A program made the position numbers and the translations under genes. A DNA stretch of 63,912 bases, the filler included, from Albugo candida (lineage: Eukaryota), in NCBI GenBank assembly GCA_040437565.1. It is 7 parts of 7 records of this genome, joined end to end, with 100 filler letters (N's around TTAATTAATTAA, not from the genome) between each part and the next. Parts side by side here need not be neighbours in the genome. Positions count along the whole stretch, not along the records: positions 10,185 to 20,095 come from JBDOQK010000118.1; 6 more parts are not named here. The stretch is one strand, 5' to 3'. Position 1 is the first letter of the stretch, and each line of letters starts with the position of its first letter. The notes under the pieces are model-generated. The model made no database searches. It had not been told where the DNA came from and was given only the letters and a program-made list of their open reading frames with translations. Shown piece after piece: positions 10,085 through 63,608 of this stretch.

Positions 10085-10184
10085 NNNNNNNNNNNNNNNN
10101 NNNNNNNNNNNNNNNNNNNNNNNNNNNNTTAATTAATTAANNNNNNNNNNNNNNNNNNNNNNNNNNNNNNNNNNNNNNNNNNNN
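10085..10184. other. Artificial scaffold linker; the same linker occurs at 20096-20195, 29588-29687, 38980-39079, 47941-48040 and 56893-56992
   Basis: 100-nt N run with a central TTAATTAATTAA (stops in all frames). Intervening scaffolds are 9911, 9392, 9292, 8861 and 8852 bp, in descending order. Confidence 0.95.
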
Positions 10185-12145
10185 ATCCATCAGGAGTTGT
10201 GCTGCGCCATCCAGGTAAGGTTATCACGCCCGGGTGTAACTTTGCTGAGGTAGCATATATACGTATTTATCGAAGAAGTAGATCCTACTAGTTTTAGTTT
10301 ATTAGCAGCATTCTCGAAATATACTCTTCTGTAGTGTTTAGTCTATACACTACGCTCGTTATAGGAACCTCACTAAGAAAAGAAAGGGCTTTATTGATAT
10401 TATACGTCAGCCGGTTGGAGAGCTTGAGAACACTATCCCATGTTGGCATATTATTTGAACGGAATATTTTGTGTCGTGGTCGGTTTTACTAAAATTGGAA
10501 TTTTGAGGTTTCAGGACATATTTTCGACTTTCATGTAGTCTCCAACTTTCAAATCGGGGGATTGATTATATTGTGTACATCAACGAATTGTGTACGATTT
10601 TCACTCAAATGGCTCCGAATGCCCAATATAGTTTTTCGCATTATCCATCAGGAGTTGTGCTGCTACGATCAAGGTAACTGAATATGTTCGCTTACAGAAT
10701 ATAACGAATCTCCCGATTAGAAAGTTTGAGACTACGTTCAGGTCGATGGTACTTCAAAATGTCATACTGAAGACGACAAATAAGATTCTGTTTCAAATAA
10801 TACGGTAACATGCGACAGTGTTCTTAAGCTCTTGAACGGGCTGGTGTATACAACTGGAATACATTTTCTTAGAAGTGAGGTTGCTATAACGTGCGTCGCA
10901 TATAGAGTCCACACTACAGAATAGTATAATCCGTGAACGCTGCATATACATACAACGAGTAGGGGCTACTTGTCTGATATGTAGGTGTTATCCGCTGCCG
11001 CATCAGACGCTACACATGTCGTAAAAACCTTCGTTGATCGCATCTTTACAAAACTCTTGATGGATAATGCGAAACCTGTATTGGGCAATTGCAATCATTT
11101 GACTAAGAATCGAGGAGAATCTGTTCGCTTACTCATACCTCAAAAATTCCAATTTCTCTCCAAACAGAAGAAGACCAATAAGTCCCGTTTCAAATACAAG
11201 GCATACATGGGATAGTGTTCCTAAGATTCTCGAAGTGGCTGGCGTGTACTACTAGAAAGCCATTACTTTTCTCAGTGAGATTGCTATAACACTACAGAAG
11301 AGTATATTCCCGGAATGCTGCTTAAATACCACAACTGGTGAGGTCTACTTCATAGATATATAGGCATATCCGCTATCGCACCGACGTTACACATGTCGTG
11401 AAAAACGTACCTTGATCGCAGCGGCACAACTTCGGTGGATAATGCGAAAATTTATATAAGGCAATCGCAACCATTTTAGATAAAATCGTTGAGAATTAGC
11501 TTGTTCACACAAATTTCAAATCAGCTGATTTGAAAGCTACAGCCTTCAATAAAGTCCCGTTAGTCACGTAATACGTCGAAATTCCAATTTTTCTAAACCA
11601 AAGACGACAAAGAACGTTACGTTTCAAATAATATGCTAACATGCGATAGTGTTCTTAAAATCTCCAACACGCTGGCGCAAAATATCAGAAAAGCCCTTTC
11701 TTTTCTAAGTGAGATTGCTATAACTGGCGTAGTGTATAGAACCCAACACTACAAAAGAGTATATAGCGGGAATGCTGCGTGTATACTACAATAGTACGGT
11801 CTACTTCTCCGATACGTAGGTATATCCGATATCGTACCTGACGTTACACATCACGTAAAACACTTATCTCAATCGTAGCGGCACAACTCTTGATGGATAA
11901 TGCGAAACCCAATACCGGCCAAACGCAACCATTTGAATGAAAATCGTAGAGAAGTTTTTCGTCTACAAAATATAATCAAGCCCACCCCGTACACAAGCTT
12001 GAAACTACATTCAATTCGAATATATTACTAGATACCTCTAAAGTTCAATTTTGTCAAACCAAAGTGGCCAAAGAAGGTTGCGTTTCAAGTAATGTGCTCA
12101 CATGCGATAGTGTTTTTGAGCTCTCGAGAGGCTGGCGTATACTTA
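10185..12145. repeat. Diverged tandem array of a ~458-bp unit with an orientation switch near 10680
   Basis: ATCCATCAGGAGTTGTGC occurs at 10185 and 10643 (period 458). The reverse-complement landmark GGATAATGCGAAA occurs at 11062, 11437 and 11895 (periods 375 and 458). Confidence 0.85.
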
Positions 12146-12149
12146 TGTA

Positions 12150-13111
12150 ACTTTTGCTCGCAGTGAAACCACATCGGTTGTGCCATGTAAAACTTAATGC
12201 GTTGTAAAACATTCCAATCTGTTATTGTGATGCTCTAATCCATGTGATGCCACAGTTTTAATTCGTGTTTCCACCACTACGATTTGCTCTCCCTTTATAC
12301 CCTTTTGCCATGTCGATGTGGTGTGATGGTGAAGATATTTATCGGCTTGTGTGGTCCAAAAGAAGGTTGAATAAGTTGTATTAATTCCGTCGAAGCAGTT
12401 GTCCATTCGCAGGAATGATTTTCGACTCATCGGATGAGAACCCCGCTGGAGGAATTGAATACGTTGCAGCTTTAGACGTTCCACTAAAAAAGTAACTTGT
12501 AGTTCACCATCCTGTCGGCGAACATATAAAAATGCTTTGCTGATCAGGTGAACATGCTTTGAATCTTTTTTGTGGTGCCGACCAAGCACAAAAAAATTTC
12601 GATCTAACATTGACTGCCGCTGTCGAGTAATCTCTGCTGGTATATCAACGTGCATAGCCTTCCTAGCTCAGTTGAAGGTGTCTATATTACTAGAATNNNN
12701 NNNNNNNNNNNNNNNNNNNNNNNNNNNNNNNNNNNNNNNNNNNNNNNNNNNNNNNNNNNNNNNNNNNNNNNNNNNNNNNNNNNNNNNNNNNNNNNNATCG
12801 GCTTGTGTGGTCCAAAAGAAGGTTGAATAAGTTGTATTAATTCCGTCGAAGCAGTTGTCCATTCGCAGGAATGATTTTCGACTCATCGGATGAGAACCCC
12901 GCTGGAGGAATTGAATACGTTGCAGCTTTAGACGTTCCACTAAAAAAGTAACTTGTAGTTCACCATCCTGTCGGCGAACATATAAAAATGCTTTGCTGAT
13001 CAGGTGAACATGCTTTGAATCTTTTTTGTGGTGCCGACCAAGCACAAAAAAATTTCGATCTAACATTGACTGCCGCTGTCGAGTAATCTCTGCTGGTATA
13101 TCAACGTGCAT
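12150..13111 (-). mobile_element. L1/Tx1-like non-LTR retrotransposon ORF2 fragment (post-RT region); 12341-12696 is duplicated across the gap
   Basis: VHLISKAFLYVRRQDGELQVTFLVERLKLQRIQFLQR resembles the post-RT 'PK..GGL' region of L1/Tx1 ORF2. The 5' truncation abuts AGCCTTCCTAGCTCAG. Confidence 0.6.
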
Positions 13112-13127
13112 AGCCTTCCTAGCTCAG

Positions 13128-14917
13128 TTGAAGGTGTCTATATTACTAGAATTAGACTAACTGACTTCTCTAGTCGTCTCGGCTACCTTAAATAACATAT
13201 ATACATATAAACACGTTTTACAAAATACCTTTGAGAGATGATATTATTTCCCTCGTTGCTAGTCCTGCAGTGCGGTAGCGTCCACCACTACAGTTCGAGA
13301 GTGTATCCATCGTGTAACGGATAAATGTTTAAAGGTGTAAAAGGTTCTGAAAAATGGTCCAAAGTACCGCGTTTTATAAAAGGATCCAAAAGTACCATGC
13401 GTTGTAAGACGGTCCAAGCGTAACGTTTGTTGTAAAACGGACCAAACGTACCGTGTGCTGTAAATGGTCCAAAGTACCGTGCTGTGCGAATTGTTGCGCG
13501 CCCCACTACGTTGAGCATAAGCAGCCAACTGAAATAAGATCCGAGTTCAACTTGCATTTGGACTCGCCTATGGCGTAGCCGTAGCAATGATCTTCAACTT
13601 CTAAAAAAATCCGCGGAATGATCCATGCGTTTGAAGTTGCTCCAAAAACTTTGCAAGCCCATTGCGGTCCTCTTGTTCGTAACACTGTGTTCGATGGTAT
13701 CGAACGTGCACACTAAACGTGGTGTAGATCACGGGAAGTCCTGGAACTATCGGAGTTGCTGATAGCTTATCGAACAAACGATGATTCCGATCTGTCCAGA
13801 CGAAGTGCAGTGTCACCGCTTGGAATGCAAGCCATAATTCTAATATAATCTCTAAATATTCTTTCCAATCCGACCGTACTGTTGGGACAATTCCACATGC
13901 AATATGCGTCCAACGTGGTCGAGAGGAGAAAAACTGATCCCAACTAGGGATTAACTCCCTCCATAATTGTGCCGTGTGATCGCACTCTAAAAAGAGATGT
14001 TGATCGGATTCCACTNNNNNNNNNNNNNNNNNNNNNNNNNNNNNNNNNNNNNNNNNNNNNNNNNNNNNNNNNNNNNNNNNNNNNNNNNNNNNNNNNNNNN
14101 NNNNNNNNNNNNNNNCACATGCAATATGCGTCCAACGTGGTCGAGAGGAGAAAAACTGATCCCAACTAGGGATTAACTCCCTCCATAATTGTGCCGTGTG
14201 ATCGCACTCTAAAAAGAGATGTTGATCGGATTCCACTCCCACACGAAGGCTGCGTGCATAATATAATGTCGGGCTGAATATCTTTTCAGGAACCAGAAAC
14301 GAGATCGAACTGGCAGCATCCGAAAGGCTAGACGAAACCGTAAATTCTCGAAAATTGGTAATACACGTTTTCGAAGATGCCGTGATGTAGCCACAAAAGT
14401 TCGAACTCGTTCTGAATCCAGTGCGTGCGATCTCTCCCGTGATGATCAATGTGTCGCCATCGGATGAGTCTTGGTTGGTTCGGGAGGTTTCCAGACGATT
14501 TTGACAGTTGTGAACGTGGAATGGATGGAGAATATTGTTTCCTTTCCTTGTTTTTGACTCCCACATAAAATGATCTGCCACTCGTGGTTGGTTTAATCCA
14601 AGTGATGAGCCCAATCGTCGAGTGGATACGCTGTAGTATCTGAGTGACTTCATTGTTAAGTAACTCAGCAACTTTACTTCAGCCATATCGGATGTGTTTA
14701 GCTCTTCATCGTTGTAATAGTTGGCGATGAATTCATCCTTCGTTGGCCATGTCTCACTTTCACGAATAAAGTCTTGCAGACTTCGAGTCTCGAAAAGCGT
14801 AGCGAGCGATTTCCGAAATTTTCGATGTGGCTCGTCCACCTCGCCAAGATTGTACCAAACATTTTGCGTCCTGGGATGACCAGTAGCAGCTTTGTAATGT
14901 AACTGTTTCCGCAGTGA
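13128..14917 (-). mobile_element. 5'-truncated L1/Tx1-like element with zf-RVT C-terminus and 3' tail, flanked by a 16-bp TSD
   Basis: Contains RLAFRMLPVRSRFWFL...VESDQHLFLECDHTAQLWREL...VTLHFVWTDRN. AGCCTTCCTAGCTCAG lies at 13112-13127 and 14918-14933. Confidence 0.8.
13352..13487. repeat. ~28-bp minisatellite, 5 diverged copies, inside the L1 3' region
   Basis: Repeated units resembling AA(T/C)GGTCCAAAGTACCG...TGTA. Confidence 0.75.
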
Positions 14918-14933
14918 AGCCTTCCTAGCTCAG

Positions 14934-17831
14934 TTAAGAGTGTTCGCCCGTAGTATGTGGACACCGTTCTGTTACTACAGTATGGTGGTTATCTACCCTA
15001 TCCTAATCACTTCTATGTAACGCTCTGAAGAGCCCGGTCCAACTCCTGTACAGTTATTTCTGGTGTAGTTGCCAAAGGTCTTGACACGTCCATATCTTCA
15101 AAGATAGGTTGATGTTCACGGGGAGGGCTCTTTGGCTCCGCCGAGGGGCCCCACCGCAGCCTTTTTTGCCACCTCCCCGGATTCGAACCGGGGTATACAC
15201 CGTCGGAACACATGTGTACAAACGCTAAGCCCCCCGACGGACTTCTCTATTTGTCAGCTGCTACGTACTTCTAAAACAAACTTTCTACCCTGTCGAAGAT
15301 AATGGTTTCTATCGACATCTCAAGCCTTCCTACCGTCACCTCACCGGTTGTTGACCACCCGTATTCTAACAACTTGTCCGTTACATCGCCGGATGTGAAT
15401 AACTTGTCTCCTCGTAGCTCGTCCGTTCGTGACCCGTTACCTGTAAAGTATACGCCCACGTCCTCCCCTATACCGTCAGACCCTTTACCTGTTGACGTGA
15501 TAATTGGCCAATCAGAGGCCGCTATGGAGATTGAGACACCTCTCTCTCCCATTCCAATTCCTGCCAATCTGCTGGTCGCAATGGAGGTGGATGACGCGTT
15601 GCCGTCAGCACCTCGGAAACCGGTTGAGCAAGGCCAGAAAACCGGTAATCGGCCAAGTCTCGCCGATCTCCTGAAGGGTCATGAGGAAATCTGCAAGGAT
15701 AATGCTACTAAAAAGCAAATCCTTTACCGTCAGATCTACGCGCTATTGAAAAGCTGTTAGAAGACGGCCGTTCAAGTTGCGGGGTTTGTCTGATCACTAA
15801 ACTGCAGCCAAACCTTTCGCATTACCGAGCGCCAAATTCTCCGCTGTGTTGGAGACTGGGCAAGCGCTGGTTCGAACCACACCAGCGCACATTTTGCGAT
15901 CTTTTGTGTGAGATCATGGTAATGTGACAGTCGACGAGCTTTTCGAAGCTAGAAAAATTGGCCAAGTGGCAAAATTACCTGGTGGTAATTTGAGACTACT
16001 TGTTATCGACGAGGAAGCCTGCCAGCAATTGGCCAATGAAAAAGATACGATTCTCAGTAACATCTACTCCTTCCGAGAATTTGATATTCTGGGCTTACAC
16101 TTTTTTTGAATATTTTTAGAATTGGACCGGAAATGTCCACTCTCAACTTGCGTCGGCATTCCATCGTCTTGGTTGCGATGTTCTGTATGAGTTCGCGAAG
16201 CCACTGCTTCGCGAAGACTTTCCACGTCGACTTGGAGAGTTTATTGCTGCGGCGCAAGCTGTCCTGACCAGATCAATGTTGGCGGCAAGAAAATATGTAT
16301 CTAGGGGAGATACTACTTGGCTCGAGGAAAAGCTTCTCCACTCCCGGTTGATCGGTTGAGGATGGGTCAGCGCAGTCCGCATTGCTTACTGCTGCCGGTG
16401 ATGACTCCTCAACCGAATCGGCAACAAAAAAAAATCGACTTCATCGGCTGAAAGTCAGCCCGTGAAGTCACAACCGAGACAACAACCAGACAGAATCAAC
16501 GTAAACATGCCTGACGTGTCTAAACAAAGTCCCACAAACAAGCTTCCTGCTCGTACAGTCCCTTCTGTTAGCTACGCTGCTGATGGAAACGTTTCCAAAG
16601 TACCCAACTCGGATCCATCCCAACAGCATATTTCTTCTGCGGTTCCGGATGTCAACAATAATGAACAAAAACTTGCAGAAAAAGCCTCGTCACAGTCTAC
16701 TGAGGATACGTGAACTCCAAGTCGAACACGCAACAAGCGCAAACACTCGATCGATCGCTTTCAGAGTTTACTAAGCAATGCCTCTCCAACATCGTCGGAA
16801 GGTTTTGCTACAAGCAATTAATTTAATGTGCTTGGCTCGGTCGACTTGGATTTTGTGAAAATCGACGTAACAACGAAAGCTGACTTAGAAAGAGGTACCA
16901 GATTGTACCATACGAGATTGTGGTTGAAAATGATCTGGCTAATTCCAAAGAAGCGTCTCATTTCATGAAGAAGAACCACACCCGGATCGAGAANNNNNNN
17001 NNNNNNNNNNNNNNNNNNNNNNNNNNNNNNNNNNNNNNNNNNNNNNNNNNNNNNNNNNNNNNNNNNNNNNNNNNNNNNNNNNNNNNNNNNNNNCGACTAT
17101 CCTTCTGTATCTTACCAGTTCGAGCACGATTTTGGTTTTTACAACAATCACATCCAGAATCATCCTGTGCACTCAGAAGCATTGTGGTGCGGTCGAAAGC
17201 TACCAGCATTTGTTTTCTCGATTGCAACAGGACAAGTCTAATTTGGGAGGAGCTCTTCTCGTAGTGGAAAATCTTCTTTTCTGATCGCCCGCGATCGTCA
17301 CACATCGCTTATGCACGGATTTCTGCACTTCGTGATGTGTGGAAGCCTTTTCAAGTTGTGCTGGAGGATATTTGGTTTACATTAGTCGCGGTCGCGAATC
17401 ATTTATTTGGACAGTTCGGATTCCCAGACTTCGCGCCGAAGGCACTTCGACACCAACTCTCTAGCTGTTTCGGTGATTTATAGCACACTGAGTGCCTATA
17501 TACGCTCTTTTCAACGGAAGTGCTATGATACGGAGCAGCGCGAGCAGTTGACACAATTATTAGCGACTTATCAACATACTGGTTCAGCCAGGAGGTATTT
17601 CTCTGCTCGGCCAAGCCTGCTTCAAGTTCGACGCTGTTAGTGATGCCAAGTCGGTGATGCGTGGCGTTTCTAACTCAGTACTATCTTATTCCAGTCGCTA
17701 AGGCTCGCTGCGGCTTTCTCGACCAGCATTGCATTCATTTAGTGTATTTATTGTAGTTTAGGCATTAGAGAAGTCAATTACGTCTAATTCTAGTAATATA
17801 GACAACTTCAACTAAGCCCCCCGACGGGGTC
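14934..17831 (-). mobile_element. tRNA-headed SINE of ~311 bp (14934-15240 plus 17828-17831), split by an L1 insertion
   Basis: The reconstructed head is GACCCCGTCGGGGGGCTTAGCG...CCCCGGTTCGAATCCGGGG, with a perfect B-box and T-stem. It is bounded by AGCCTTCCTAGCTCAG at 14918 and 17832. The 3' end ...AACACTCTTAA resembles the L1 end ...GACACCTTCAA. Confidence 0.7.
15241..17811 (+). mobile_element. L1/Tx1-like element: degenerate ORF1, gap, ORF2 C-terminus and 3' tail, with a 16-bp TSD
   Basis: ORF1-like pieces at 15302-15760 and 15924-16109. The zf-RVT region (LSFCILPVRARFWFL) lies at 17094-17640. CTAAGCCCCCCGACGG is identical at 15225-15240 and 17812-17827. Confidence 0.8.
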
Positions 17832-17895
17832 AGCCTTCCTAGCTCAGTTGCAGTTGTATATATTACTAGAATTAAAAGTAAATGACTTCTTTGAA

Positions 17896-19885
17896 TGTAA
17901 CGTGGTTACACGTCGCTTAGAAACCGTTACGTAGTGTTGTATACATTTGGGACGCTTTGGGTTATTCGCTATAGGAGCTGACGCGTGTCACCCACCGGAT
18001 ATTGGTAACTAGGTTTGGTAGGTTTAGCGTAACGTACTCTTCGAGATAATAAAAAAAAAAAGTTGGCCTTTAGATCAGTTAGAGACACGTCCCTGCTTCA
18101 GGCGTCTCAGATCTTGTGCACTTTGTGCTGTGTTGTCCATTCCCGGAATCGTTAGGTTCCTTGAACAAGGACCTTAAGCTTCAAGGCTTGCTGACTCGTT
18201 CAGTCTAGTTCTTTTAAAGAACTAAGTTGCTCGTTTAGCAGATAGCATTCCTCTTGAAAGGAGTTAGAGTAGCTCCGCTACACGTGGTAGCACTCGTACT
18301 CAATCTACACGTGAGTTTGTGAAGACTGATCCTCTGTGAGGATGGAACAGCCCACTTCCCTCTCTGAGGCACAAAGGGTTTCGCTTGACAAGCTGACCGC
18401 ACCAGTGGGCCCCGAATATGTGGAGTTTCTTGTTTAGCAAGGCCCGGACGTGTTGAATGCACGTCTTGAGAGCTTCATGCAGTATGAAACGTCCCTATTA
18501 GGGCAGGTCTGAGACCAAATGGCGTCGGCTATGCCAACACGCTTTGTGTCTGTTACCAGACGAAGAGGGTAAGCCTCGTCCAGTAAAGTTGGATGTCCGT
18601 CACTTCTCCGGTAAGGAAGGTGAAACCTAGTCTTCTGGATTTGTGAGGTAGAAATGGCCATGAAGTCTGGGATGATCTCGGTTGAGCATCAGTGGGTCTC
18701 GCTGACGGTCAACAAGCTCGATGGTAGAGCTAGAGAATGGGCGCTGACGTGCGGTACGTCAGTGGGCATGGTGTTCCCCACATGGGCTCGCTGAAGTTGC
18801 AACTCACGCGCGTCTTTGCGCCGCCTAATTAGTCATATCGCGTGCGGTCACGCTTCTTGTCTAGCCGTCAGGGTAAGAGCGAATTGTCGGACTATGTCCA
18901 AGAGTCGAAAACACTCATAGCTGCTATGCAGAATGAGTCTCTTCCTGAGCTGATCCATGTGACCGTGTTAATGGAAGGGCTTCGCACTGGCGTTGAAAGA
19001 AACTAGTCTTTCGAGTTCACCCGTCTAGCTTTGATGAAGCGTTCGAAATAGCTCAGAATGCTGAGCACAACTTTTAAGTCGGCTAGACTTGGTTAGAATG
19101 GGTATAATCCAGGTTCTGCGAGAACATGCTCTATGAGTACATCGGCTTTTTGTAAGCATGAGCCTATGGACCTTAGCAATGCTGAAGGTGAAGCCGACCT
19201 TCAAGTTGCTAAGCAATACCGCGACATCTGTCGATGCTATTCGTGCGGGAGCACTGACCATCTGCGTCGCAGGTTCCCGTTGCGCAAACAGCGCCAGGCT
19301 CAGTTGAAGGTGTCTATATTACTAGAATTAGACTAACTGACTTCTCTAGTTGCCTAGGCTATCTTAAATAACATATATACATATAAAAACGTTTCGAGAA
19401 NNNNNNNNNNNNNNNNNNNNNNNNNNNNNNNNNNNNNNNNNNNNNNNNNNNNNNNNNNNNNNNNNNNNNNNNNNNNNNNNNNNNNNNNNNNNNNNNNNNN
19501 CGGGGTTACACGTCGGTTAGTAACCGTTATGCAGTGTGGTACACATTTGGGACGCTTTGGGTTATTTACTTTAGGAGCTGACGCGTGTCACCCACCGGAT
19601 ATTGGTACCTAGGTTAGGTACGTTTAGAGTACCGCACTCTCCGAGATAATAAAAAATAAAGAACAGTTCCCCTTTAGATCAGTTAGAGACACGTGCCTGC
19701 TTCAGGTGTCTCAGATCTTGTGTACTTTGTGCTGTGTTGTCCATTTCCGGAATCGTTAGGTCCCTTGAACAAGGACCTTAAGCTTCATAGCTTTCTGACT
19801 CGTTGATTCTAGTTATTTAAAGAACTAAGTTGCTCGTTGAGCAGATAGCATTCCTGTGGCAAGGAGCTAGAGTAGCCCCGCTATA
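17896..19885 (+). mobile_element. Ty3/Gypsy LTR retrotransposon, degenerate, with pol lost in or at the gap
   Basis: 5' LTR 17896-18282 (TGTAAC...GCTACA) and a similar 3' LTR at 19501-19885. PBS-like TGGTAGC. Retrotrans_gag (LDGRAREWAL...RFLSSRQGK) and a degenerate knuckle CYSCGSTDH. Confidence 0.85.
19304..19400 (-). mobile_element. 3' tail of another L1-like copy inserted in the Gypsy gag
   Basis: GCTCAG|TTGAAGGTGTCTATATTACTAGAATTAGACTAACTGACTTCTCTAG, identical to the tail at 13128. Confidence 0.8.
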
Positions 19886-20195
19886 CTAAATGCCTAGATT
19901 ATAATAAACAACATATAATACATGCAGATGTGGCTTGAAAAGTCACAAATAGTAAACTTGGTGCGGCTGAAGACGGTTGAGTAGACTAGCCCCTCGACTC
20001 AGACTTGTGAGCGCTCACGCCTTCGTATCTTGAGAAGATCTGATCTCCCGGAGAAATATCTTTTTGCTGAACCTGATTGCAATAAACCGAGCAAANNNNN
20101 NNNNNNNNNNNNNNNNNNNNNNNNNNNNNNNNNNNNNNNTTAATTAATTAANNNNNNNNNNNNNNNNNNNNNNNNNNNNNNNNNNNNNNNNNNNN

Positions 20196-20721
20196 AATTT
20201 GGAGATTGGGTTCATAATATAATGTCGGGTAGAGTACCTGTTAGAGCCCAGAAACGAGATCGAGCTGGCAACATCCTAAATGACAATTGAGACTGTAGAT
20301 TACCAAGGAATAGAAGAATGCGTCTTCGACGATGTCGTGATATAATCCCAAATTTCCAAGAACCGTCCTCAATCTGCTCAGTCGATCCCTCGCGCGATGA
20401 CCAATGTGTCAACATCGAATGACTCTTGTTTTCTTCGGAAGGTGTCCAGACAGTTTTAAGAGTTGAGAACGTGAAATAGAGGTGGAAAATCATGCCTCTG
20501 CTTCCTTTCAACTCCCACATAAAACGATCTGCTTTTTGAGCTGGGCTGAATTCATGTGATGAGAGCAATCGTTGAGTGGAAACGCTGAAGTATCTGAGTG
20601 ACTTAATTGTAAAGTCGAGGCAAAGACTTTTGTTCAGCCACATCAATGTATGAATCCCTTCCTCGTTGTAGTATTGGTCGACGAATTCATCACGGAATGG
20701 TAATTCAGCTTCAGAATTCAT
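20196..20721 (-). mobile_element. L1/Tx1-like ORF2 C-terminal fragment
   Basis: Similar to ORF 13601-14839 (DEFVDQYY; LSFRMLPARSRFW). Confidence 0.75.
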
Positions 20722-22150
20722 GATGCTTGCTTTATCGATACAAACAGAAGTAGACTATATCAGCAATATCGCAACACGGTATGTGGCAAAAGATGTCGCA
20801 GAAGATATTCGGTTCACAAGGTTTAATATTTTTAGGACTGACCTACGTCATACTTCTAGCTCTCGGCGCAGATCCCTGGTCGTCGAACTGGCTCCGACTT
20901 TCCTATTTTTGCAGACAGATAAGTGATGACGATTTGTTAAATGGCCCAAGATCTAATCGGCACCGTTACTTTTGCCGTACCCGAAATGGGCAAGAAAAGC
21001 AAGTGGCTATCAAACAAATACTACCTTCAATCGACACTGATCGGCTTAGAGTGGTTTATCAGGAAGTAAATTTATTGAAACCGGTTCAAATATTGAATTT
21101 AATGAAACAAATACGGTCGCATGAACTCCCTGTTTGACCTCAAGGAGGGTATACTTGATCAATAGGATCTATACTGGATTGAGGATAGAACGCTTCATTC
21201 GAGCCAATTCTACCTGAACAACTCAGCAACGCGAATATTGATATGGATGTGAATAATTCGCATCGCACTAGACACATATAAGTTCGGATAATCATTTATC
21301 TTGAGAATGGTGTATAATACAAGCACGGTTGACGAGTCCAGTCCTTGACGAGATCCGTTGAAATGCTCATGAATCAGGCGCTTTTAAGGATATAGCGGGG
21401 AGCTGAACGATCGTACAAATACGAAAACGATGATTTACTCGACAGTCGAACTGCTTTGTGTGCGCATGAGTTGAAAAGGAAGTACACTTGATTCAAATAA
21501 GATAAGATGGATTGCGCATGTACGAAATCAAAGTGCTGAAAGCATTTAATGGGCTATGGATTAGCGCAACTCTCATTTCATCCATGGAATTGTGCTGTAG
21601 TATACATTCCATGGCTCGAAAAATCTTATTCCTCCAAGACAGATATATGCAGCAACTTTTCACGTCTTATGTACTACGTTGCCTACCATCGACATAATAT
21701 CGAGTACCTTTGAAGCCTCTACATCTTTTTAACCAGCGATGGATCTCGTATCTTTCGGACATCATTCACTTATGCAAACTCTCTCAAACATAGACAAAGT
21801 TTACTCAAATCCACACATAAACTCTTGTTATCAAAATCATCGTAGTTTTCTACATCACTCAATACCATATTCGCTTACGGCTAGATAGAAAGTAGGAAGA
21901 CGTACTAGACATTCAGCCGCTCCTTGAAGTCGATTAATTCACACAAAGTACTCCTGCATATACTACTGAATCACGTACACGATCTCGGAACTTGTCTTTG
22001 ACCAGCATGGATAAAATTAGGAGATGAATCAGGCAGCATTATTTATCTTGGGGTAGAGCACACATACACGGACGCCGATGCAAAGAATTTATCTGATCTG
22101 GGCAATCATGATGTATCGGCCTGTACAAATATACTGATGTATCGCTTATA

Positions 22151-29520: not shown

Positions 29521-29989
29521 GATCCGGATCGGACCACAATAAATCACACATTGGGCCTTCATGAGGAACTTCTTGTAATCGATCCAANNNNNNNNNNNNN
29601 NNNNNNNNNNNNNNNNNNNNNNNNNNNNNNNTTAATTAATTAANNNNNNNNNNNNNNNNNNNNNNNNNNNNNNNNNNNNNNNNNNNNCCAAGCCCGTATA
29701 CTATACGTACGGATATACACATTGCACACTTTCAATATCAGCAATGGAAAGCGACGACACAAATTAGCAGCAGCTTCTTTCGATAACATGAGTCATGCCA
29801 AAAAAAGGGATACAATTTAAGCAGTAATGAGTACAACCGAGAATGTGACCGTCCGTTTTGTGTAGTATCAAGTGAAAAGCGTTATAAAGCAGTGTGCACG
29901 CAACATGACTGTTTCTTTGTTGTGCAGTTTTCCTTTTCGCAGACAATCAGCCCCCCAACAAAGTTTTCTTTGCACTCCTGTCAAGTATT

Positions 29990-36059: not shown

Positions 36060-39000
36060 TTCCTTTCGTTGCCGAGGGAGTATCCTTATAATCAATCAAA
36101 AAACTAGAATCACTTGAGTCACTAGCTTGTAAGAAATCGTTCTATAAAGCGTCCGCTTGATCCTAGCAGCCGTGCTCCATAGTTTTTGAGTGATCATATC
36201 TCCTATACAGTGAAAATAAAACTCTACGTATGAAATTCATCCATTATTCAGCATAATATAAAATTCCCACAGCAACTGATCTCTGTATTCTAGTAGTCAA
36301 AATAGCATTATCGTAACATTTGATCCGATGAATGGGATGTCAAGTTTTGTAACTCGTGGCATAAAGTCTTTTGGGATCTCGTGCGATTTATGGTTTTAAG
36401 AAAGTCCACGGACCAGATCAATGACAAAAAGAACTTGCAGACAGGGCAATACATAACATGCAAGATCAGTCTCGACCCTTCTTTTTTCAAGTTACTGCGC
36501 ATATACCGATTATTACTTTGATTGATAGACAGTCGAGCTCAAGATCACTGCGCAAAACGTAGATGAAAGATCGTAAACATGGTCAGTATTGTTGAGCGAT
36601 ATGCCGTCTACTTGTTGACACGATTTTCAAGCAGACTGTGATAATGCCAGAAAAATGGCTAAACCTCTATAGTCAGCAGGCTCTCTGACTAGCTGCTTGT
36701 ATTTATGTAGCGCGTCAAATGTTTGTATCAATCGGCATGGGAGTTAGTTGTAGTCATAAAGCCGAGTGAAGCTTACGGATTGATATGGTGAGAGAGATGA
36801 AGATGACTTTACGTACGGGGACGGATTCATCACTGTGAACTTAATTGTATGAATGCACGTCCTACATTTTGAACAAATCCCAACTAAAGTCGTGTGCACA
36901 GGTCTCCATTTCAAAGTTGATTGTTATCATACACTATATACGTACCTTGTGAACTATAGACTACAAAAAAAGTAGATCAGGAGATAACTTGGAGGAGAAA
37001 AGTAAGAACAACCTATGCAAATTTTCAAGATAGATCCAAGCATGTATACCCTATCTTTATACATATGTGCCCGAAGAAAATATGTCGCGAAGAATACTGT
37101 TGTTTGAATTTGAGTAAGCACTACTATATAAATTCAATATGAAAAAAGGCGATCTTACGCCCATTTTAATGAATCTGCGCTTCCGATTGATTGATAGTTA
37201 CCAGCATCAAGAAAGCTGTAATAGCTAAATTACTCGGTATGGCTGATAGGGTGTGCAAACATGATTATCACTTCGGCTTTGCGTTTTTTTCATTCTCGAG
37301 ATTTGAGACTCAAAGTGATCGTAATAAAGGAAGCTAGAAGCTGTAGCTCTAAATATATAAAGGAATAATCGAGAGGGCTACGCCGGCGCGAGCTGATGAA
37401 CACAACTCAATAAACGGAGTGGTGCACGGTAGTGGTAAAATACCTAAGATACGATAGCACCAAAGATGATTCTCGCCTCTCGACACCATGTAGACTTCAT
37501 TGACACGGGTCCAGATTGAGGACTCACTTCTGTATCTGTGATAAGATGTCTGTGGCTTCCTTACAAGCGTACTACAAAGTACTCAGTTCACGGAATGGAT
37601 TGGAGACAGGTGTGGTATGCTTGAAAAAGTTCGAATTGAGTAGTAGTTCCTGAATGATACTAAATTATTCGTGTAGTTTCCAAAGGTATGACGGTAATAA
37701 CAACAAACGGCGAGTCCCATTGCGAATTTAGCTGCATACTGGGTATCTCAGGTAAAGGAGGGTTCGTCACATCACCATAATCTACTATGAATGAATGGGC
37801 TCAAATTAGTAGCTTCGTCATCGCAAAATCAATGAGTATATCACACAGTGACATTATTGTCACATTTCCTTCTTTCTTACTGCAACAGAATTGCCATGTG
37901 GACCACAGCAGGTACATTTATACAACAATCGGAGTCTGGTGAAGGGCTTGTGAACATCAGACTCACAATTACTTAGCCGAATGCCATTTCGATCAAATGG
38001 ATGGGACCTTGAATATGGCATTGCTGCATCGCATATTGGCAAGAATGCCGATATAAATATGTTTGCTCTTCGTATCGTTCCTGTGGTATTCTTTGGCTCA
38101 GTATTTTTCCAATATCGTTGGATGATAATTTTGAATATGATAAGAGCTCACTTTGAAACATAGAAATCGACTATATGATAAATCGTGTTTCGCTTCAATC
38201 AGTATTCTCTCAAGCGCTTTGATTGAAAAGGTATTTCTACAAGAAGAAAGCCCGTTTCAATTTACACAATACTCGTAATGATGAGTTTAACCAAAGAACT
38301 TATCGTACTTCAGCGCATCATCTGAAAAAAAATTATTGACTGACGCACGTATCAAAATTTTCTTTCAGTCAAAAGTGCTCACCGACATGTTCAAGTAATG
38401 CGATATCGACCCCAACTCGCACCTCCTCTTCCTCTTCACAGCAGGTTGATTGTTGATTCTCTCAAGAGCTTAAAATTGTATTGACGATATATAGGAGATT
38501 GTGTGGAATATACGAGCAATGTTGACGTCTTCCGTATTAATCTGAGGCACAATAGTTGTCGAAATAATCCCACGTTGATGGTGTTCATCTTGGTCAAAAA
38601 AGTGAGTTGATAATTGACAGGGACTGTATATACATATAAGTGAAGCATTAATGCCGTACAGCTTTGTTTTCAATGATAGTCCAGCGCTCCGCATGCAAGC
38701 CCTATTATTTTGTTTTCTTATTAGAATTGCATCCTTTGGTCTTGCACAGATGCAACGAAAAGTTTCTTGACTCCATTGACATCAAAAGCATCCAATTGCA
38801 GCGACATACAGTATGTTTTAACGTCGTGGTTTGTTCTACCCCGCTTCTTATGGTGTGATAATTGAGATCAATCCATGAGTTGTGAACAGCTGGACTTCGT
38901 GTTGTTGATAAGGATAAATGGTTACATTGCCATGATTGGATGTAACAAGTAAACTAAATTATATCCCTGTCGGGATGCCNNNNNNNNNNNNNNNNNNNNN

Positions 39001-39626
39001 NNNNNNNNNNNNNNNNNNNNNNNTTAATTAATTAANNNNNNNNNNNNNNNNNNNNNNNNNNNNNNNNNNNNNNNNNNNNACCAAGGATGGAAGTGAAAGC
39101 ATTGTAGATGAAGTTGGTAAAACGTTTCTTTGTCAAAAGCTCCGAATCCAACATGATCGATTGCTCCAAGGAAGCTTATATAATTGTAATATGCTGCTTT
39201 GCCGCTCACTATCTTCATATTTTGTGAATTTTCGTCTCCTTGCACTTGTGGTTGAGAGAATAAAGTGGTATAAAGCAGTTCGCATGTGCTTGATACATAT
39301 GAGTGTATTGAATGGGGCATCGTTTGTGTGAGCAATTGGCCAAAATCGTAAGTAACTAGGACTGAAGAACTCTTGCACCATCAATTGAGATCATTGATAC
39401 AAAATTACCAAAGCTTGTAAGATTAAATCTATCGCAATGATTTTGTCTCATTTGTAGTATCACTACAAGTTAGAATAAGGGACAGACTCTGCAGTTCAAA
39501 ATAAACTCCAAGTGTACGCTGAGGTACTGATTAATGCAAGTCAGAGCCATATGTATACAGCTTTGTAACGTGATACTTCTATTGCAGCGGACTAGCGTAT
39601 AATCCTTGACTAGCCAATGACGTGTG

Positions 39627-47940: not shown

Positions 47941-49826
47941 NNNNNNNNNNNNNNNNNNNNNNNNNNNNNNNNNNNNNNNNNNNNTTAATTAATTAANNNN
48001 NNNNNNNNNNNNNNNNNNNNNNNNNNNNNNNNNNNNNNNNATATAGCTGAACTCGAGAGGGGGGATCTCATGCAACACGGGAAAACGAAAGGTGCAGCAC
48101 ACGAATCGCTGTCAGCGATTTCCACTTCGACAAGAAATGAAAACATCAGCTCTAGCAGCAAAAAAAAAAAAGGTAAAAAATTGCGGGAAAAGCCAACCAT
48201 CAAAATAAATGAAGACAAATTCCAGGATGAGCTCTCAACACCATCGACGCGATTGGATGGACCAACTGCGACTGCAAGCAATAAGAACACCAACTCCCGC
48301 AACAAAAACAAGGGGAGGAAAAAGACGAACTGGCGACACTGAGTGTAAATACGGGCTCTTATTTATGGAAGTCGGTAGCACTGAACAATCTGTGAAGCAT
48401 CAAATATATTCACAAATCGACCGAATATACAATTTTGCAATCATTTCAAAGCACAATGACAACCTTCTACAGTGGTCTCCTAGTCCAAGGCTTTGCTAAG
48501 AGCTCTAGTCTCGATGCAGTGACACCGCCTTTTGCAATGGCAATCACTATTACCCCCGCCAGCTTGACTGAAACCTTCCATTGATAGCAGGCCAAACTTA
48601 CTTCATATTATCATGACTGTCTCTTCTTGCATATCGTTCTTCAGCTCCATTGCTATCCTAAAAGCCATTTTTAAAAGCATCAGAGCAGTGCGAGAAGCTT
48701 CATAACAATGCTAAAAATGAGAAAGAAGTTGAATGGATACTTAGTTCAAGGGTAACGTATTGGTTTGCATAGGTAACGATTGACGTAATGGGGGCTCGTT
48801 GTACCGAAATAATTGAGCGCTCTCATGCTGAGCTTATATTTGATTTAGTGATACTTTCGTATTCATTTTGAATGAACAGGAGCTCAATCTACTTTCTGAT
48901 GCCTAGTCAACGTACTGAACAGATTATAGACATTCGATAAAGCCAACTAGGACGTAGACGAAGGCAGTTTGACAATCTAGATGAAGGGCAGTATCTGCTT
49001 TTGGACCATATATCTTGATCAACTTCATAACTTGTTACTCTTGCTTGACCTTGGGACATCGCTTTCTCACCAGAGTGGAGCAACGTGGAGCAAGTATGAG
49101 GGATGAAGGACGGCGGTACCAGAGGCGTTTGCATTGTCGACTTGTCGACGCTCCACTCATTGTATTATTTCAGATCTCGTCTCACATCGAGTCTTTGTAT
49201 ATCAAATGAGCTGAAGATGTTCATAGCTTCGGCTCCACGCACCACATTATCAAGGCATCGAGCAGTCAGAACGAGTCAAACTCTTACAAATTCCAGATGA
49301 AGGAAATTGATGTTGATGCAAGAAATAATAAAAGTTATTGGGGACAAAAAAGCCGTTTGGCCGGAAACAGAATCTGTGAGGAAGTAGCGATACGCATGGA
49401 TGCAGCACAGCAACAACGACGAAGCCAAAGATGAGGTCAATGACCGTCTACAGGAAGCGGATGAACGTCTTCGAACCCAGATTGTGGATTAGAAGATCAG
49501 CAACGATTCCGTATACGCATTTGGAACAGATCATGCTGACACCATACTGCAGAAAAGTTAGATAAACGACATTGTAAAAACAATACAGAATCAATGCTGC
49601 GCACTTGATCCCGATCATACCCCAGCTTGTGATAGTCGATTCATCATTTCATCAATCGAATGCATCGAAAAAAATGTTTTCCTTGCTCTTCCTTCATCAA
49701 TTGCTCAAGTAGGCGCAACTGCTAAAAGTCTTCAAAATTGTCATGGTCATAGATCTACTATCATGTCGCGATTAAGTCAGTGTATGCGCATATAAGTCAA
49801 CAAGTCAAATCGCTCGATTTTGAGAA

Positions 49827-51017
49827 ATGAGTGAGAACGCCGAATCTGAACATCATTTTAACTTCTATGAAGAGCTCGGTGTCCAGCGATCCGCCAGCGA
49901 ACTCGAAATCAAAAGTGCTTATCGCAAACTAGCGTTAAAGTACCATCCCGATCGAAATGCCGGCTCAGAGGAAGCTGCAAATAAATTCAAACAAGTTTCG
50001 ACAGCATACGCGGTCCTAAGCGATCCAAACAAACGGCGACAGTATGACCTCTCAGGTGAGACCGGCAAGGGGATCGAAGTCGAAAGTGTGGATGTGGAAG
50101 CAATGGGTGGTTTTGGACGAATGGTTGGCGCGCTATTCACCAAAATCGGACTACCAATCCCGACTCAGATTTCTCAGTCTGTCCTGTCCTCCGCTCGCGA
50201 TATTTGTGATGAGAGAAGCAATACAAGTAACAAAGTTCATGTCACTGATCTTCCTTTTGGTGTGGAGAAGCATTCGAAAGTCGATAAACAAGATGCTCAT
50301 TTCTACCGTATACATTTGGCCGCAGCGAATGAGTCTCTTGTCCTAAAGTGTCGTTCCATGTCAAAGAGTAAGTTCAAACTGGTTTTATTCGATCAAAGTG
50401 GAGGAGTTCGATTGGTGCAGGAATCGGTGAAGAAGACCAGATACACCGCAGCAGATATGTACCTCACGAATTCGGTCGAGTTGATGGATTTGAACGAAAT
50501 GTGGCCACCACATTTGAATGGACACGAACAAGAGCTACCAGAGGTATTCACCAAGCTGACCTTTTTCGAAGTACGACGTACAATCTCACTCGAAAAAGGA
50601 CCTCATCTGATTTGCGTGTATGGCGATAATTGGCTTTCCGCTGTAAAGTATTCAGTGACCTGTGTGAAAATGGAGATGTCGTCTCAAGCGTTGCGTGACA
50701 TTCAAGAGACTGAGAATACGCTTGTCAGAGAGAAAGAGAGTTTGGATAACTTACAGAAAGAATTCCTTGCAGCAAAGAAACAATATGAAGACGTGGTAGC
50801 ACGTGTCGAAGAGAAACAAAAATATACCGACGAGGTACTGGCAAAAAGAGAGCAAGCGTATGAGGAATTCCTAGCCGAGTGTCATGGACGAGACAACAAA
50901 GTAGTACCATGCGAAGAAACACCTCAACGAAGATTCAGTTCCGGTGGCGACTCGGGCGGAATTCGAAAAGTAATCAACGGTTTTTCCAACAAACTATTCC
51001 AAGGAAAAGAAGGATAG
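49827..51017 (+). CDS. DnaJ protein, ARG1/ARL-like
   Basis: J domain with [20 protein letters not shown] and a C-terminal coiled coil. Single exon, 396 aa. Confidence 0.92.
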
Positions 51018-56379: not shown

Positions 56380-56992
56380 TGGGTGTGAATTAAAGTCTTC
56401 CGAATGTTGCGAGAATGGTTCGGATGTAATGACGACTTTTATTCGCTACAATGTATATCGATAAATTCCACGCCTTGTGATATACTTTCTGAAACGATGC
56501 GAGTGCGTCTCAAGAGCAGCGAGAGAGAATGTGGAGGACGTATTATCGGATCGAACGATATGGAGAGAAATTGTATTTGACAGGTAGCTTGAAAAAAGAA
56601 GATCAATTTGACTAATAGTTTACAGCACATAAAATAGATAATCGAAATCAACATCGTTTCTATACCGTTCCTGATCCGAACCTGTCCTCTACATGTGGCC
56701 TCGCATTTTTTACGTAATGTATAAGAATATTGTATATTTTACAAATCGGAAAAGAGAGTCATATGACATGCTCCTCCTACAATACCACAAATATACAAGC
56801 TGTCGCACTCGGCTGCACAGTTTTACTACCGGAAAATCTTGTGCAACTTTATACTTTTTTGTCTACTCTGAATGTTCCATCAAACTTCAAGANNNNNNNN
56901 NNNNNNNNNNNNNNNNNNNNNNNNNNNNNNNNNNNNTTAATTAATTAANNNNNNNNNNNNNNNNNNNNNNNNNNNNNNNNNNNNNNNNNNNN

Positions 56993-57514: not shown

Positions 57515-60500
57515 ATGCCAAGACAGCGACAAAATTTAAGTGATGCCGAAAGGCGTAAAAAGAAAAGAGAGTACGATAGATTAAGAAGAGCTCGTATTAG
57601 AGCTGAACAACAACAACCTCAAACCCGTAATTCAAACGAGGAAAGAAGAAATTACATGAGAGGTTACATGGCGCAAAGACGTGCAGGATCTTCACAAATA
57701 AGAGAAAATGAAGCTGAAACTAGACGAGAGAATAGACAGACAAGAATTGAAGTCGATACTGATTTTTTAGAAGCTGAAGCTAATAGATCTAGATCTAACA
57801 GAAGTGTTACTACTCCTGAAATTGCGAATGACAATGGAGAGAATGTGAGTATTATATTAATTTTGTTCAAACCATTGCGATTGCTAATTAATAAATTTGG
57901 GCAGGAGCGTTTACAATTTGAAATCAAGGCAAGAGAAGGCCCAACAATAGTGTGTGGATGCTGCGCATGTTTATATTTTAATAAAGACATGAGCATAGTT
58001 ACTGCGGAACAACTTACTGCTAAAGGCATTGGTAATTATATTAAAACTCAGTTTATAAAATTAAATACTCACGTAAATTTAAATTACAGAGCTTGATATG
58101 ATTGAGAAAGTTTTCTGGCCTGTGTCAGAAGGAATCCTTGGACCTACGAATAATAAGCTTTGTAATACTTGCAAAAGAACATTGTTTGATTCCAAAAAAT
58201 TACCGACTATTGCATTAGTAAACGGACTTCACTTTCCAAATGTAGATCCAATTATAAATGATTTAACTAGACTTGAAGAAAGACTTGTAGCAGGAAGACA
58301 TGTTTTTCAGTCTATTTGGACAATGCAAGGAACCAGTGGTCAATATCGCAGTAAGGGAGGAATTGTGAATGTTCCTGTTAACGTAGATACGACAGTTTCC
58401 GCTTTGCCTAGAAAATTAAATGATTCCTGTATAGTCCATGTTGCCTTAGCTAGACGTCTTATATATTTAAAAGATTATATAAAAGGAAATATCGACGTAT
58501 CAAAAGTATGGCGTGCAGCTAATTATTTGACTAGCAAAAGTCTGTATTTAAAATATAATATTGAGATTGACTGCGAATGGATGAATACTGTTGCAGCTGA
58601 GATTGAGGGAGAGCAAGAATCATCTAATCACCTGGATGAAGAGGTTAGAGAATCTGATAATTTAGATGAAAATGTTGAAGTAAATGATGAAAATGTGGAA
58701 GTAAATGACGAAAACGTGGAAGATGAGGTTAATTCTGGTGCTAGAGAGTCAGTGGTTGTTAATGATCACGAAGCTTTAAGAATGGCTCCCGGCGAAGGAA
58801 GGGTCCCCTTGTCAATTTTACAAGACAAGCACAGTGACTTTTTGTCTTTTCCTAAGATTTATTGTGGTGAACTATTAAATGGTATTGATTCTATGTCATA
58901 TGGCAATTATGCTAAGTCTGTCGCTCGAAGATTTGACAGAAGAGGGGTAGAGAGAGTAGATTACCTGTTGTATATGGATCGAAAATACCAGCTGATAAAG
59001 ACATGTGGTAATATAAGTACCGTAATGAGAAAAAGAAAGAAGCCCAATACTTTTAATAGCAATAACCAAGATCAGCCTTTTAGAGCTTCGGATTTTTCCG
59101 ATTTAAATAATATCAACATGTTTTTCACCAAAGATCAAGCATATAAAATCTTTTCTGGTGTACGCTCCTCTACTGAGTATTGGAAAAACCAAAAAAAGAA
59201 TGTTTTAGCTATGGTTCGTCAATTTGGTATCCCTACTATTTTCTTGACATTGTCTGCAGCTGAGACAAAATGGAATGAATTATTGGTAATGCTGAAAAAG
59301 CTAGTCGATGGAGTTACCATTTCTGAAGAACAAGCTGAAGCTCTTTCATCTAAAGAAAAATCCTACCTTCTTCAAAGTGATCCAGTCACATGTGCTAGAT
59401 ATTTCGACTATAGATTTCGACTTTTAAAAAAGACATTTCACTCAAAAAACGGGCCATTTGGATCTCACGTTCCTGAACATTATTATTTTCGTGTGGAATT
59501 TCAACATAGAGGTTCACCTCACATACATGGGTTGTTTTGGTTAAAAAATGCTCCTAATATTAGTTCATCTACTCATCCAGCTTCTGCAGAACAAGTAGTT
59601 AATTTTGTTGATTCGATTATAAGCTGTAGAAAAGAATGGGATGGTAGTTCTCATCACCGGGATAGTAGTTCAAGTAATGATGACACTTGGAAAGAGTTGA
59701 TTAAAAGACAATATCATAAACATACTAGATCTTGTCTTAGAATTAAGAATAATCAGCAATTTTGTCGTTTCAATATACCATTTTTTCCAATGGACAAAAC
59801 TAGAGCTTTAGCACCCATTGCAGAGGGTGAAGAAAGGTTCACAGGAAAACCATTTGAATTCCATAAGACAAATTATAAAAGAATCAAGGAATACTTGCAT
59901 AATAACTGTGAAACAATGAGTGAGGGAAACATGACTTTTGATGAATTTTTAATTAATGTAGGAATTACAGATATGAAATATTATATTCATGCTATCCAAT
60001 GTAGCTTAAAAACAAACAAAGTGATTATAAAACGAAACCCCAATGAAGTGATGATCAATAATTATAACACAAAAATATTTTCTATGTTCAAATCAAATAT
60101 GGATATTCAGTTCGTAATAGATCCTTATGCATGCTGCTCCTACATTGTGGATTATATAAACAAAGCTGATAAAGGAATGAGCAAGGCACTAGAAGAATCT
60201 TATAACAAATGTGTAGAAAATAATAATAGTAGCGCTTTTGACACTTTAAGATCTTTATCAGCTACATACTACAACGCGTGTGAGATATCAGCTCAAGAAG
60301 CTTCTTATAATATATTGCAACTAAGAATGGCTGAATCAAGTTGTGTTTCTTATTTTATACCAACTGCTAAACCTGAAGATCGTATGCATATACTAAAAAG
60401 TCATGAAGAACTGTTAAAATTAAATGCTGATTCAACAGATTGTTTTGAACCTAATTTGATAGACCATTATATTAATCGGCCAGACGAATTAGAGAGTATA

Positions 60501-63500: not shown

Positions 63501-63608
63501 GATAATATATTCTCTTCCGAAGCTACAGTTGAATCTGGAAGGTACATTTCGTTTACTAGCTTTCATGAGCCTTTATGGTTAAAAATAGACAAGTCGCTAC
63601 CTTCTTAA
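57515..63608 (+). CDS. Helentron/Helitron2 RepHel transposase: HUH Rep, PIF1 helicase and C-terminal APE endonuclease (~1990 aa; predicted introns 57845-57904 and 58032-58089)
   Basis: CGCC/CNTC zinc motif, FLTLSA, VEFQHRGSPHIHGLFW, YIVDYINK, GGAGTGKS, IIDEISMV, GDFLQLPPV and TVHKSQG. The EEP domain shows HNVQSL, LQETW, GDFN, IDNIF and SFHEPL. Confidence 0.95.

Follow-up and report, generated by a model that had tools for sequence, protein, structure and literature searches.

A nest of retroposons in Albugo candida with LINEs of apparent L1 type and a candidate SINE-like partner at CTRAGC sites

In the passages of the literature that deal with the closest described systems, target-selective long interspersed elements (LINEs) with an apurinic/apyrimidinic endonuclease-like (APE) domain are reported for the Tx1 and R1 clades (PMC4640811), and a common target preference of crocodilian SINEU short interspersed elements (SINEs) and Tx1-Mar LINEs is the ground on which mobilization in trans was inferred (Kojima 2015, PMC4494074). 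From oomycetes, the same kind of source describes L1-type retrotransposons without long terminal repeats (non-LTR retrotransposons), filed as L1 families in Repbase (PMC5348765), the Utopia elements, which are specific to U2 small nuclear RNA (snRNA) genes (PMC4640811), and the infSINE families of Phytophthora infestans, which are SINEs with putative RNA polymerase III (Pol III) promoters and of which infSINEm has 32 copies (PMC3429519). Here we describe a locus of the oomycete Albugo candida (assembly GCA_040437565.1) within a stretch of 63,912 nucleotides, filler included, which is referred to below as the window. The locus lies on the scaffold that occupies positions 10185–20095 and is a real, neatly resolvable nest of retroposons. 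We read it, with a probability of about 0.7, as a nested pile-up produced by a single LINE family of L1 type with an APE endonuclease, in which a short element of 311 nt is the SINE-like partner of the LINEs.

The nest is organized around a 16-mer, AGCCTTCCTAGCTCAG (hereafter T), which occurs exactly at positions 12656, 13112, 14918 and 17832, giving four matches where 0.05 were expected from shuffled sequences. The copy at 12656 was not counted, as it falls inside a 356-bp gap-flank duplicate of the copy at 13112. The three genuine T junctions separate four minus-strand insertions, which follow one another from head to tail in the order LINE_A, T, short element, T, LINE_B, T, LINE_D (Table 1). 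T stands directly after the 3′ ends of three elements, namely LINE_A (17848), the short element (14934) and LINE_B (13128), and directly before two LINEs that are truncated differently at their 5′ ends, at residues corresponding to ~413 (LINE_B) and ~249 (LINE_D) of P0001, a protein found by protein search with the minus-strand open reading frame (ORF) beside T. Because T follows three 3′ ends and precedes 5′ ends of differing truncation, it is target DNA and not element DNA. A fourth T would be out of view, since LINE_A is split by a long terminal repeat (LTR) element and runs off the scaffold end. Two other accounts of T were tried and set aside: minus-strand frames cross T, which could make it a part of the second LINE reading frame (ORF2), and tblastn homology to P0001 begins only past T; transport of the 16-mer by read-through, as the sole explanation, fails on the observation that other tails precede other 16-mers. 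Public read contigs from four runs (X1, X3 and X9 among them) were aligned at 85% likeness. An X9 contig spans 14700–15043, and with it the junctions of LINE_B, T and the short element, with 0 differences, and an X1 contig spans 15030–15346, across the junction of the short element with the 5′ end of a further, nested LINE, with 1 difference.

When 15241–17827 is removed and 14934–15240 is joined to 17828–17831, a minus-strand element of 311 nt is restored. The original prediction, made from the sequence of this locus, had placed an element of ~311 bp on the minus strand between two copies of T, and this was borne out, both copies being exact (14918–14933 and 17832–17847). In its length, its exact 16-bp duplication and its multi-copy status, the short element is what is expected of a SINE. 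Over 14918–15244, the X9 contigs reach a summed word depth, which is not a copy number, of 154–472, with a depth of 3–12 in the contigs that match the window exactly. The majority letters differ from those of the window copy, with T>A at 15012 in 238.4 of 246.6 depth (four contigs) and AA>TT at 15101–15102 in all of the depth (192.7/192.7). In one X9 contig, 15219 is followed by six other letters and then by 17812, and a loose end among the X1 contigs belongs to an uninterrupted copy that reaches the same GGGGTC end and then enters a different flank. Uninterrupted copies therefore exist and the 5′ end is reproducible. The short element is a multi-copy family, present in tens of copies as an order of magnitude only. 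It contains a 75-residue frame for which no relatives were found among proteins of 41–132 residues at E ≤ 0.01, it had no match to the LINE proteins by tblastn at E < 1, and a 22-mer taken from it hit 0 loci in an exact-pattern scan of Joint Genome Institute (JGI) metagenome contigs. Compared by description, it is like the infSINEs (PMC3429519, in the passages on these families) in being a short, non-coding, multi-copy oomycete retroposon with a putative internal Pol III promoter.

Between nt 20 and 21 of the short element sits the nested LINE, whose insertion has duplicated nt 5–20, so that CTAAGCCCCCCGACGG is exact at 15225–15240 and 17812–17827 (2 matches, 0 expected). An L1 insertion at the GCTTAG of the short element had been predicted, and the nested LINE indeed sits in the head of the element with its own exact 16-bp duplication. 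Three distinct targets are occupied in the window, namely T, the head of the short element and the gag region of the LTR element (19298–19303), and all three begin with CTRAGC on the sense strand of the inserted element. Of the distinct duplications, two are measurable, and both have a length of 16 bp (2/2, a very small sample). A constant insertion-site sequence and a constant duplication length are the marks of the target-selective APE-type LINEs, and both are found here (3/3 CTRAGC, 2/2 16 bp). LINE tails away from T likewise precede the hexamer, in the form of CTAAGC at 17812 and CTGAGC at 19303–19298, and in an X3 contig a LINE tail is aligned through 17817, across the CTAAGC of the window, before a different flank begins. 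That CTRAGC is itself the 3′ end of the LINE was considered and rejected, as 15225–15230 is native to the short element, the second copy of which has CTAGGC at this place. Across 62,984 bases of the window, CTRAGC occurs at 39 sites (about 1 per 1.6 kb), of which 3 distinct ones are occupied, so the hexamer is a preference and not a unique address; the SINE had been called site-specific, a term that does not suit three targets with only a hexamer in common. The LINE family has a hexamer preference and a fixed 16-bp stagger. It is like Utopia insofar as both are target-selective non-LTR elements of oomycetes in arrays at the target; Utopia, as portrayed in the relevant passages of PMC4640811, has a restriction-like endonuclease and is strictly U2-specific, whereas the endonuclease here is of APE type in relatives and the targets have only the hexamer in common.

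The type of the LINE family was judged from related proteins. P0001 matched RVT_1, and P0122, a full-length relative 47% identical to P0001, carries both Exo_endo_phos and RVT_1. P0122 is collinear with human L1 ORF2p over residues 12–898 (E = 2.4e-61, PDB), and the best R2-type chain aligns with it over the reverse transcriptase (RT) only (E = 2.7e-25), in a PDB comparison that comprised L1 and R2-type chains only. On these protein comparisons, the LINE family is classed as L1-type in the broad sense, with an APE endonuclease in its relatives. It would be like the oomycete L1 families (PMC5348765) in what its relatives display, namely an APE endonuclease, an RT and a C-terminal zinc knuckle, and in their collinearity with human L1 ORF2p; the passages of that paper on these families are silent on target preference. 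This LINE family has no poly(A), a conserved tail of ~45 nt ending in CTTCAA, and the CTRAGC preference. The five tails in the window, one of which is an assembly duplicate, have ~45 nt in common that end in (A/C)CT(T/G)CAA, and a poly(A) tail is found in none of them. A 25-mer of the LINE tail hit 0 loci in the exact-pattern scan of JGI metagenome contigs.

A course of events that would produce this nest can be proposed. The LINE endonuclease would nick the priming strand just 3′ of GCTYAG (CTRAGC on the sense strand of the element) and the second strand would be cut 16 bp away, with the result that each insertion is flanked by a 16-bp duplication starting with CTRAGC. Since the duplication re-creates the target on both sides, the same site would stay open to repeat hits, and this is the most likely explanation for the repeated hits at T, where at least four elements (LINE_A, the 311-nt element, LINE_B and LINE_D) would have piled up at the same 16-mer. 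The short element would be transcribed by Pol III from an internal promoter and, having no coding capacity, was most likely mobilized in trans by the LINE family. At later times, another LINE copy would have inserted at the chance GCTTAG at nt 15–20 of the short element, and an LTR retrotransposon into LINE_A. Read-through transcripts could also anneal to the nicked GCTYAG end, which is possible because the genomic copies all precede CTRAGC; annealing of read-through to the target is discussed for R2-type elements in a part of PMC4494074. The locus is like the SINEU/Tx1-Mar system treated there, in which copies are often flanked by other SINE or LINE copies at the same target, and differs from it in that the crocodilian elements target one particular Mariner transposon, with SINE heads derived from U1 or U2 snRNA, whereas the features here are a hexamer with a fixed 16-bp duplication, an oomycete host and a head with only a B box and a T-arm.

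Whether the short element is a Pol III SINE of tRNA descent was examined with consensus motifs for the A box and the B box. The B-box motif GGTTCGAATCC (11 nt) is exact at 15179–15189 on the minus strand, in line with the original prediction of a B box, and is placed inside a T-arm-like hairpin with a stem of 5–6 bp and a 7-nt loop (nt 52–70). An A-box-like sequence, GGGCTTAGCGT, lies ~43 nt upstream of the B box; it had been put forward as a second promoter box and agrees with the consensus at 6 of 9 specified positions. When the 55 nt ahead of the B box are shuffled, 63% of the shuffles attain this level by chance, and 14% do so at the canonical spacing of 41–47. With default settings, ARAGORN found 0 tRNA genes in the window and 0 in the rebuilt short element, and a search of Rfam gave no family match at E ≤ 10, either on 7.5 kb or on 307 nt of the element alone. 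At 85% of its threshold, ARAGORN drew a degenerate cloverleaf in sense orientation from the 5′ end of the element (nt −1 to 77), a level that 21 of 1000 shuffles also reached and at which there were 3 hits in the window. The short element contains no run of TTTT. The claim of tRNA derivation draws on the exact B box, the T-arm and an overall layout that fits, and falls short in the tRNA models and the A box; we put tRNA descent at roughly even odds. Set against tRNA-derived SINEs with LINE-derived tails, the short element is one for which tRNA descent is not demonstrable with tRNA models and in which the LINE-like tail covers only 10 nt. The missing Rfam match, the cloverleaf seen only at the relaxed threshold and the chance-level A box are also what one would expect if the 311-nt element were a retroposed repeat of another kind, be it some other RNA mobilized by the LINE, a template-switch chimera or a deletion derivative of the LINE, with a B box that is fortuitous or a relic. 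We regard this as improbable, though worth keeping in view, because the B box is exact over 11 nt within its stem and lies ~43 nt downstream of the A-box-like sequence, the cloverleaf drawn at the relaxed threshold begins at the very 5′ end and runs in sense orientation, internal TTTT is missing, and neither the LINE proteins nor the proteins searched with the 75-residue frame provide a relative. The Pol III A box has GCTYAG as its core, which corresponds to positions 10–15 of many tRNAs. T itself resembles the start of a tRNA gene (positions −1 to 15), with a 7-nt acceptor strand followed by TA, GCTC and AG, and the nested LINE has hit the short element at the place equivalent to the tRNA-like A box in T, a pattern that would follow if the LINE family homed to tRNA-like A boxes, in tRNA genes and in the heads of tRNA-derived SINEs; we hold such homing to be unlikely.

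The original prediction had gone further and combined these features into a self-limiting loop, in which a tRNA-derived, site-specific SINE spreads L1 targets in its A box and L1 insertion kills the promoter of the SINE. Two observations speak for it: the L1 insertion comes directly after GCTTAG, at nt 20, inside the best A-box match (6/9), and the element and the LINE have the duplication length and the hexamer in common. What the insertion displaces, however, is limited to nt 1–4 of the short element and its upstream flank. Read from 15240 to 14934, 307 of the 311 nt are kept (nt 5–311), with the putative A box and the exact B box both intact downstream of the L1, so the internal Pol III promoter was not destroyed as had been supposed. 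Nor does the SINE appear to create new targets, as the other copy seen has GCCTAG instead of GCTYAG at the hit site, from which it follows that the target is a feature of the window copy and not of the family; at the frequency of CTRAGC in the window, the chance of such a hexamer on either strand of 311 nt is ~0.3. With an A-box match at chance level, no tRNA by default ARAGORN or Rfam, and a single nested insertion, which is insufficient to make a loop, the loop is not supported and we consider it highly improbable; one LINE in one SINE copy within a dense repeat nest is unremarkable. We give equally little credence to the notion that the nested structure is an artefact of assembly, arising from wrongly joined contigs of different repeat copies. 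The scaffold contains four 100-N gaps, at least two of which have 100% duplicated flanks, and the two ends of the nested LINE are on different contigs, all of which would suit such an artefact. A wrong join would not, however, yield identical 16-mers at both ends of the LINE, nor at three element junctions inside contigs, and the contigs of two runs cross the LINE_B/T/element and element/L1 5′ junctions with 0–1 differences. An exact 16-bp duplication whose copies lie on separate contigs speaks for a single insertion, with one end on either side of the gap at 16994–17093.

Several points weigh against the reading that we prefer, a pile-up by one L1-type LINE family with a SINE-like partner. 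When compared with four LINE tails, the 3′ region of the short element resembles none of them beyond chance. Local alignments of its last 120 nt score 8–11, which 61, 64, 248 and 424 of 500 shuffles matched for the respective tails, and the patchy similarity to the L1 tail that had been noted is thus within the shuffle range. Only the terminal 10 nt of the short element and the LINE tails agree, at 5–7 of 10 positions; the figure is 7/10 for the LINE_B tail (ACACTCTTAA against ACACCTTCAA) and 7/10 for the LINE_C tail. A binomial estimate for this end-anchored agreement is ~0.004, which makes it suggestive and a point in favour of the reading. RNA folds of five 50-nt tails gave no common hairpin and did not stand out from shuffles (z −0.71 to +0.37). 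The partner LINE may recognize little beyond the terminus, and the true partner subfamily may lie outside the window. That the short element uses the L1 machinery, as had been proposed, agrees with its being discrete, multi-copy and non-autonomous, with its L1-like 16-bp duplication starting with CTRAGC and with its lack of poly(A), and is not matched by a LINE-like tail beyond 10 nt. The hexamer alone, with 3 of 39 sites occupied, fails to explain four hits at T. By truncation or gap, the LINE copies in the window are without endonuclease (EN) and RT domains; they are C-terminal parts of ORF2, so the L1-type call draws on relatives at 47–71% identity. One copy of the short element is present in the window and one further 5′ end is visible with 4 nt of flank; what is said of its 3′ end and its target preference consequently depends on one insertion. 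The depth figures carry the limit stated with them, X9 may be the same data from which the window was assembled, and the scaffold is poor.

The remaining parts of the locus fit around this nest. LINE_B contains a 100-N gap with duplicated flanks, and its ORF (13601–14929) is 71% identical to P0001 over 84 residues and matches zf-RVT at E = 8.6e-4, below the cut-off. In its 3′ untranslated region (UTR), at 13330–13480 on the minus strand, several units of ~30 bp resembling GGTCCAAAGTACCG were seen by eye. The homology of LINE_D starts directly after a T copy, and on the 3′ side LINE_D breaks off at ~12141, where it meets a tandem repeat; diverged repeats (70–73% identical, direct and inverted) fill 10401–12141 and adjoin this broken side. 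LINE_D ends at about residue 423 of P0001 and LINE_B starts at about residue 413, an overlap of ~10 codons (12121–12160 and 14890–14917) that may be a coincidence, the mark of one rearranged copy or an effect of assembly. The C-terminus of the nested LINE ORF2 was located at 17094–17631 (tblastn, residues 1191–1370 of P0122), and the 100-N gap at 16994–17093 probably hides most of ORF2. The segment 17848–18283 was tried as one LINE that lacks a 5′ T and rejected, as it consists of the 47-nt LINE_A tail followed by an LTR. Positions 19887–20095 (minus strand) are collinear with 17580–17766 in the 3′ UTR of the nested LINE (score 42 against 11.3 ± 1.9, reached by 0 of 300 shuffles), and this alignment stops exactly where the 47-nt piece of LINE_A starts. 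The LTRs of the intervening element (17901–18283 and 19501–19886 as aligned) are 88.9% identical, and a sequence like a primer-binding site (TGGTAGC...) follows the first. Its degenerate gag has a CCHC motif and a 100-N gap inside; the matches to Retrotrans_gag (E = 2.4e-4) and zf-CCHC (E = 0.009) are both below the Pfam cut-off. Between 17768 and 17891, a long imperfect palindrome is made up of two inverted LINE tails with T and the 20-nt stub of the short element between them, and a match to MIR4372 there (22.9 bits against a gathering score of 100) is spurious, being merely these two tails.

Any reading of the locus must allow for a poor, repeat-rich assembly. Separate scaffolds are joined by linkers in the window, and adjacency across the linkers therefore carries no meaning. 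On other scaffolds, an ORF of DnaJ type (49824–51017) has 62–67% identity with proteins from downy mildews and from Pythium, Lagenidium and Phytophthora, and reaches 99% only with a read-assembly contig, and an open frame of 1841 residues at 58083–63608 (plus strand), with Helitron_like_N, a PIF1 helicase and a C-terminal Exo_endo_phos_2, looks like a near-intact transposase of Helitron/Helentron type.

Table 1. Features of the retroposon nest and its surroundings, with positions counted along the window
Feature	Position	Strand	Remarks
T copy 1	13112–13127	+	Between LINE_B 3′ end and LINE_D 5′ end
T copy 2	14918–14933	+	Target duplication on the 3′ side of the short element
T copy 3	17832–17847	+	5′-side duplication of the short element; also 3′ flank of LINE_A
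Assembly duplicate of T	12656–12671	+	Inside the 356-bp repeated block
Short retroposon, nt 5–311	14934–15240	−	Putative A box, exact B box and T-arm hairpin, body, 3′ end ACACTCTTAA
Short element, nt 1–4 (GACC)	17828–17831	−	Another copy, differently flanked, has the same 5′ end (X1 loose end at 15219)
Left copy of nested LINE duplication, CTAAGCCCCCCGACGG	15225–15240	+	Equals nt 5–20 of the short element
Right copy of nested LINE duplication, CTAAGCCCCCCGACGG	17812–17827	+	Exact 16 bp
Nested LINE, apparent L1 type	15241–17811	+	5′ part with degenerate ORF1-like frame; tail ACAACTTCAA
LINE_A tail, last 47 nt	17848–17894	−	Tail ACAACTGCAA
LINE_A 3′ UTR remainder	19887–20095	−	Runs to the scaffold end
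LINE_B, 5′-truncated LINE, apparent L1 type	13128–14917	−	ORF2 C-terminus from P0001 residue ~413, 3′ UTR, tail ACACCTTCAA
LINE_D, 5′-truncated ORF2 fragment, apparent L1 type	12121–12655	−	P0001 residues 249–423; tblastn 67–77% identity
LTR retrotransposon in LINE_A 3′ UTR	17895–19886	+	LTRs ~17895–18286 and 19501–19886
LINE_C tail in the gag of the LTR element	19298–19400	−	Tail 19304–19400, into gap; hexamer GCTCAG (19298–19303) adjoins the 3′ end
ORF2 C-terminal fragment, same LINE group, next scaffold	20207–20754	−	DNA 73% identical to 14251–14737
Assembly duplication	12341–12696 = 12797–13152		356 bp, 100% identical, across a 100-N gap; inflates repeat counts
Assembly duplication	13894–14015 = 14116–14237		100% identical, across a 100-N gap; inflates repeat counts
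N runs around TTAATTAATTAA linker	10085–10184, 20096–20195, 29588–29687		Spacing ~9–10 kb
N runs around TTAATTAATTAA linker	38980–39079, 47941–48040, 56893–56992		Spacing ~9–10 kb

In the open-access literature, we found no paper on an oomycete L1-type LINE that prefers a hexamer and has a SINE partner. With the loop unsupported, the weight of the finding is modest. The locus offers a worked example of a LINE of apparent L1 type with a CTRAGC preference, a 16-bp stagger, a conserved tail other than poly(A) and a likely non-autonomous passenger. Homing to A boxes, if true, would give the APE-type LINEs of oomycetes a new class of target. If confirmed genome-wide, the preferred reading would carry the range of target-selective APE-type LINEs and of their SINE partners beyond animals, and would aid the annotation of repeat nests in oomycete genomes, in which transposons are found near effector genes.

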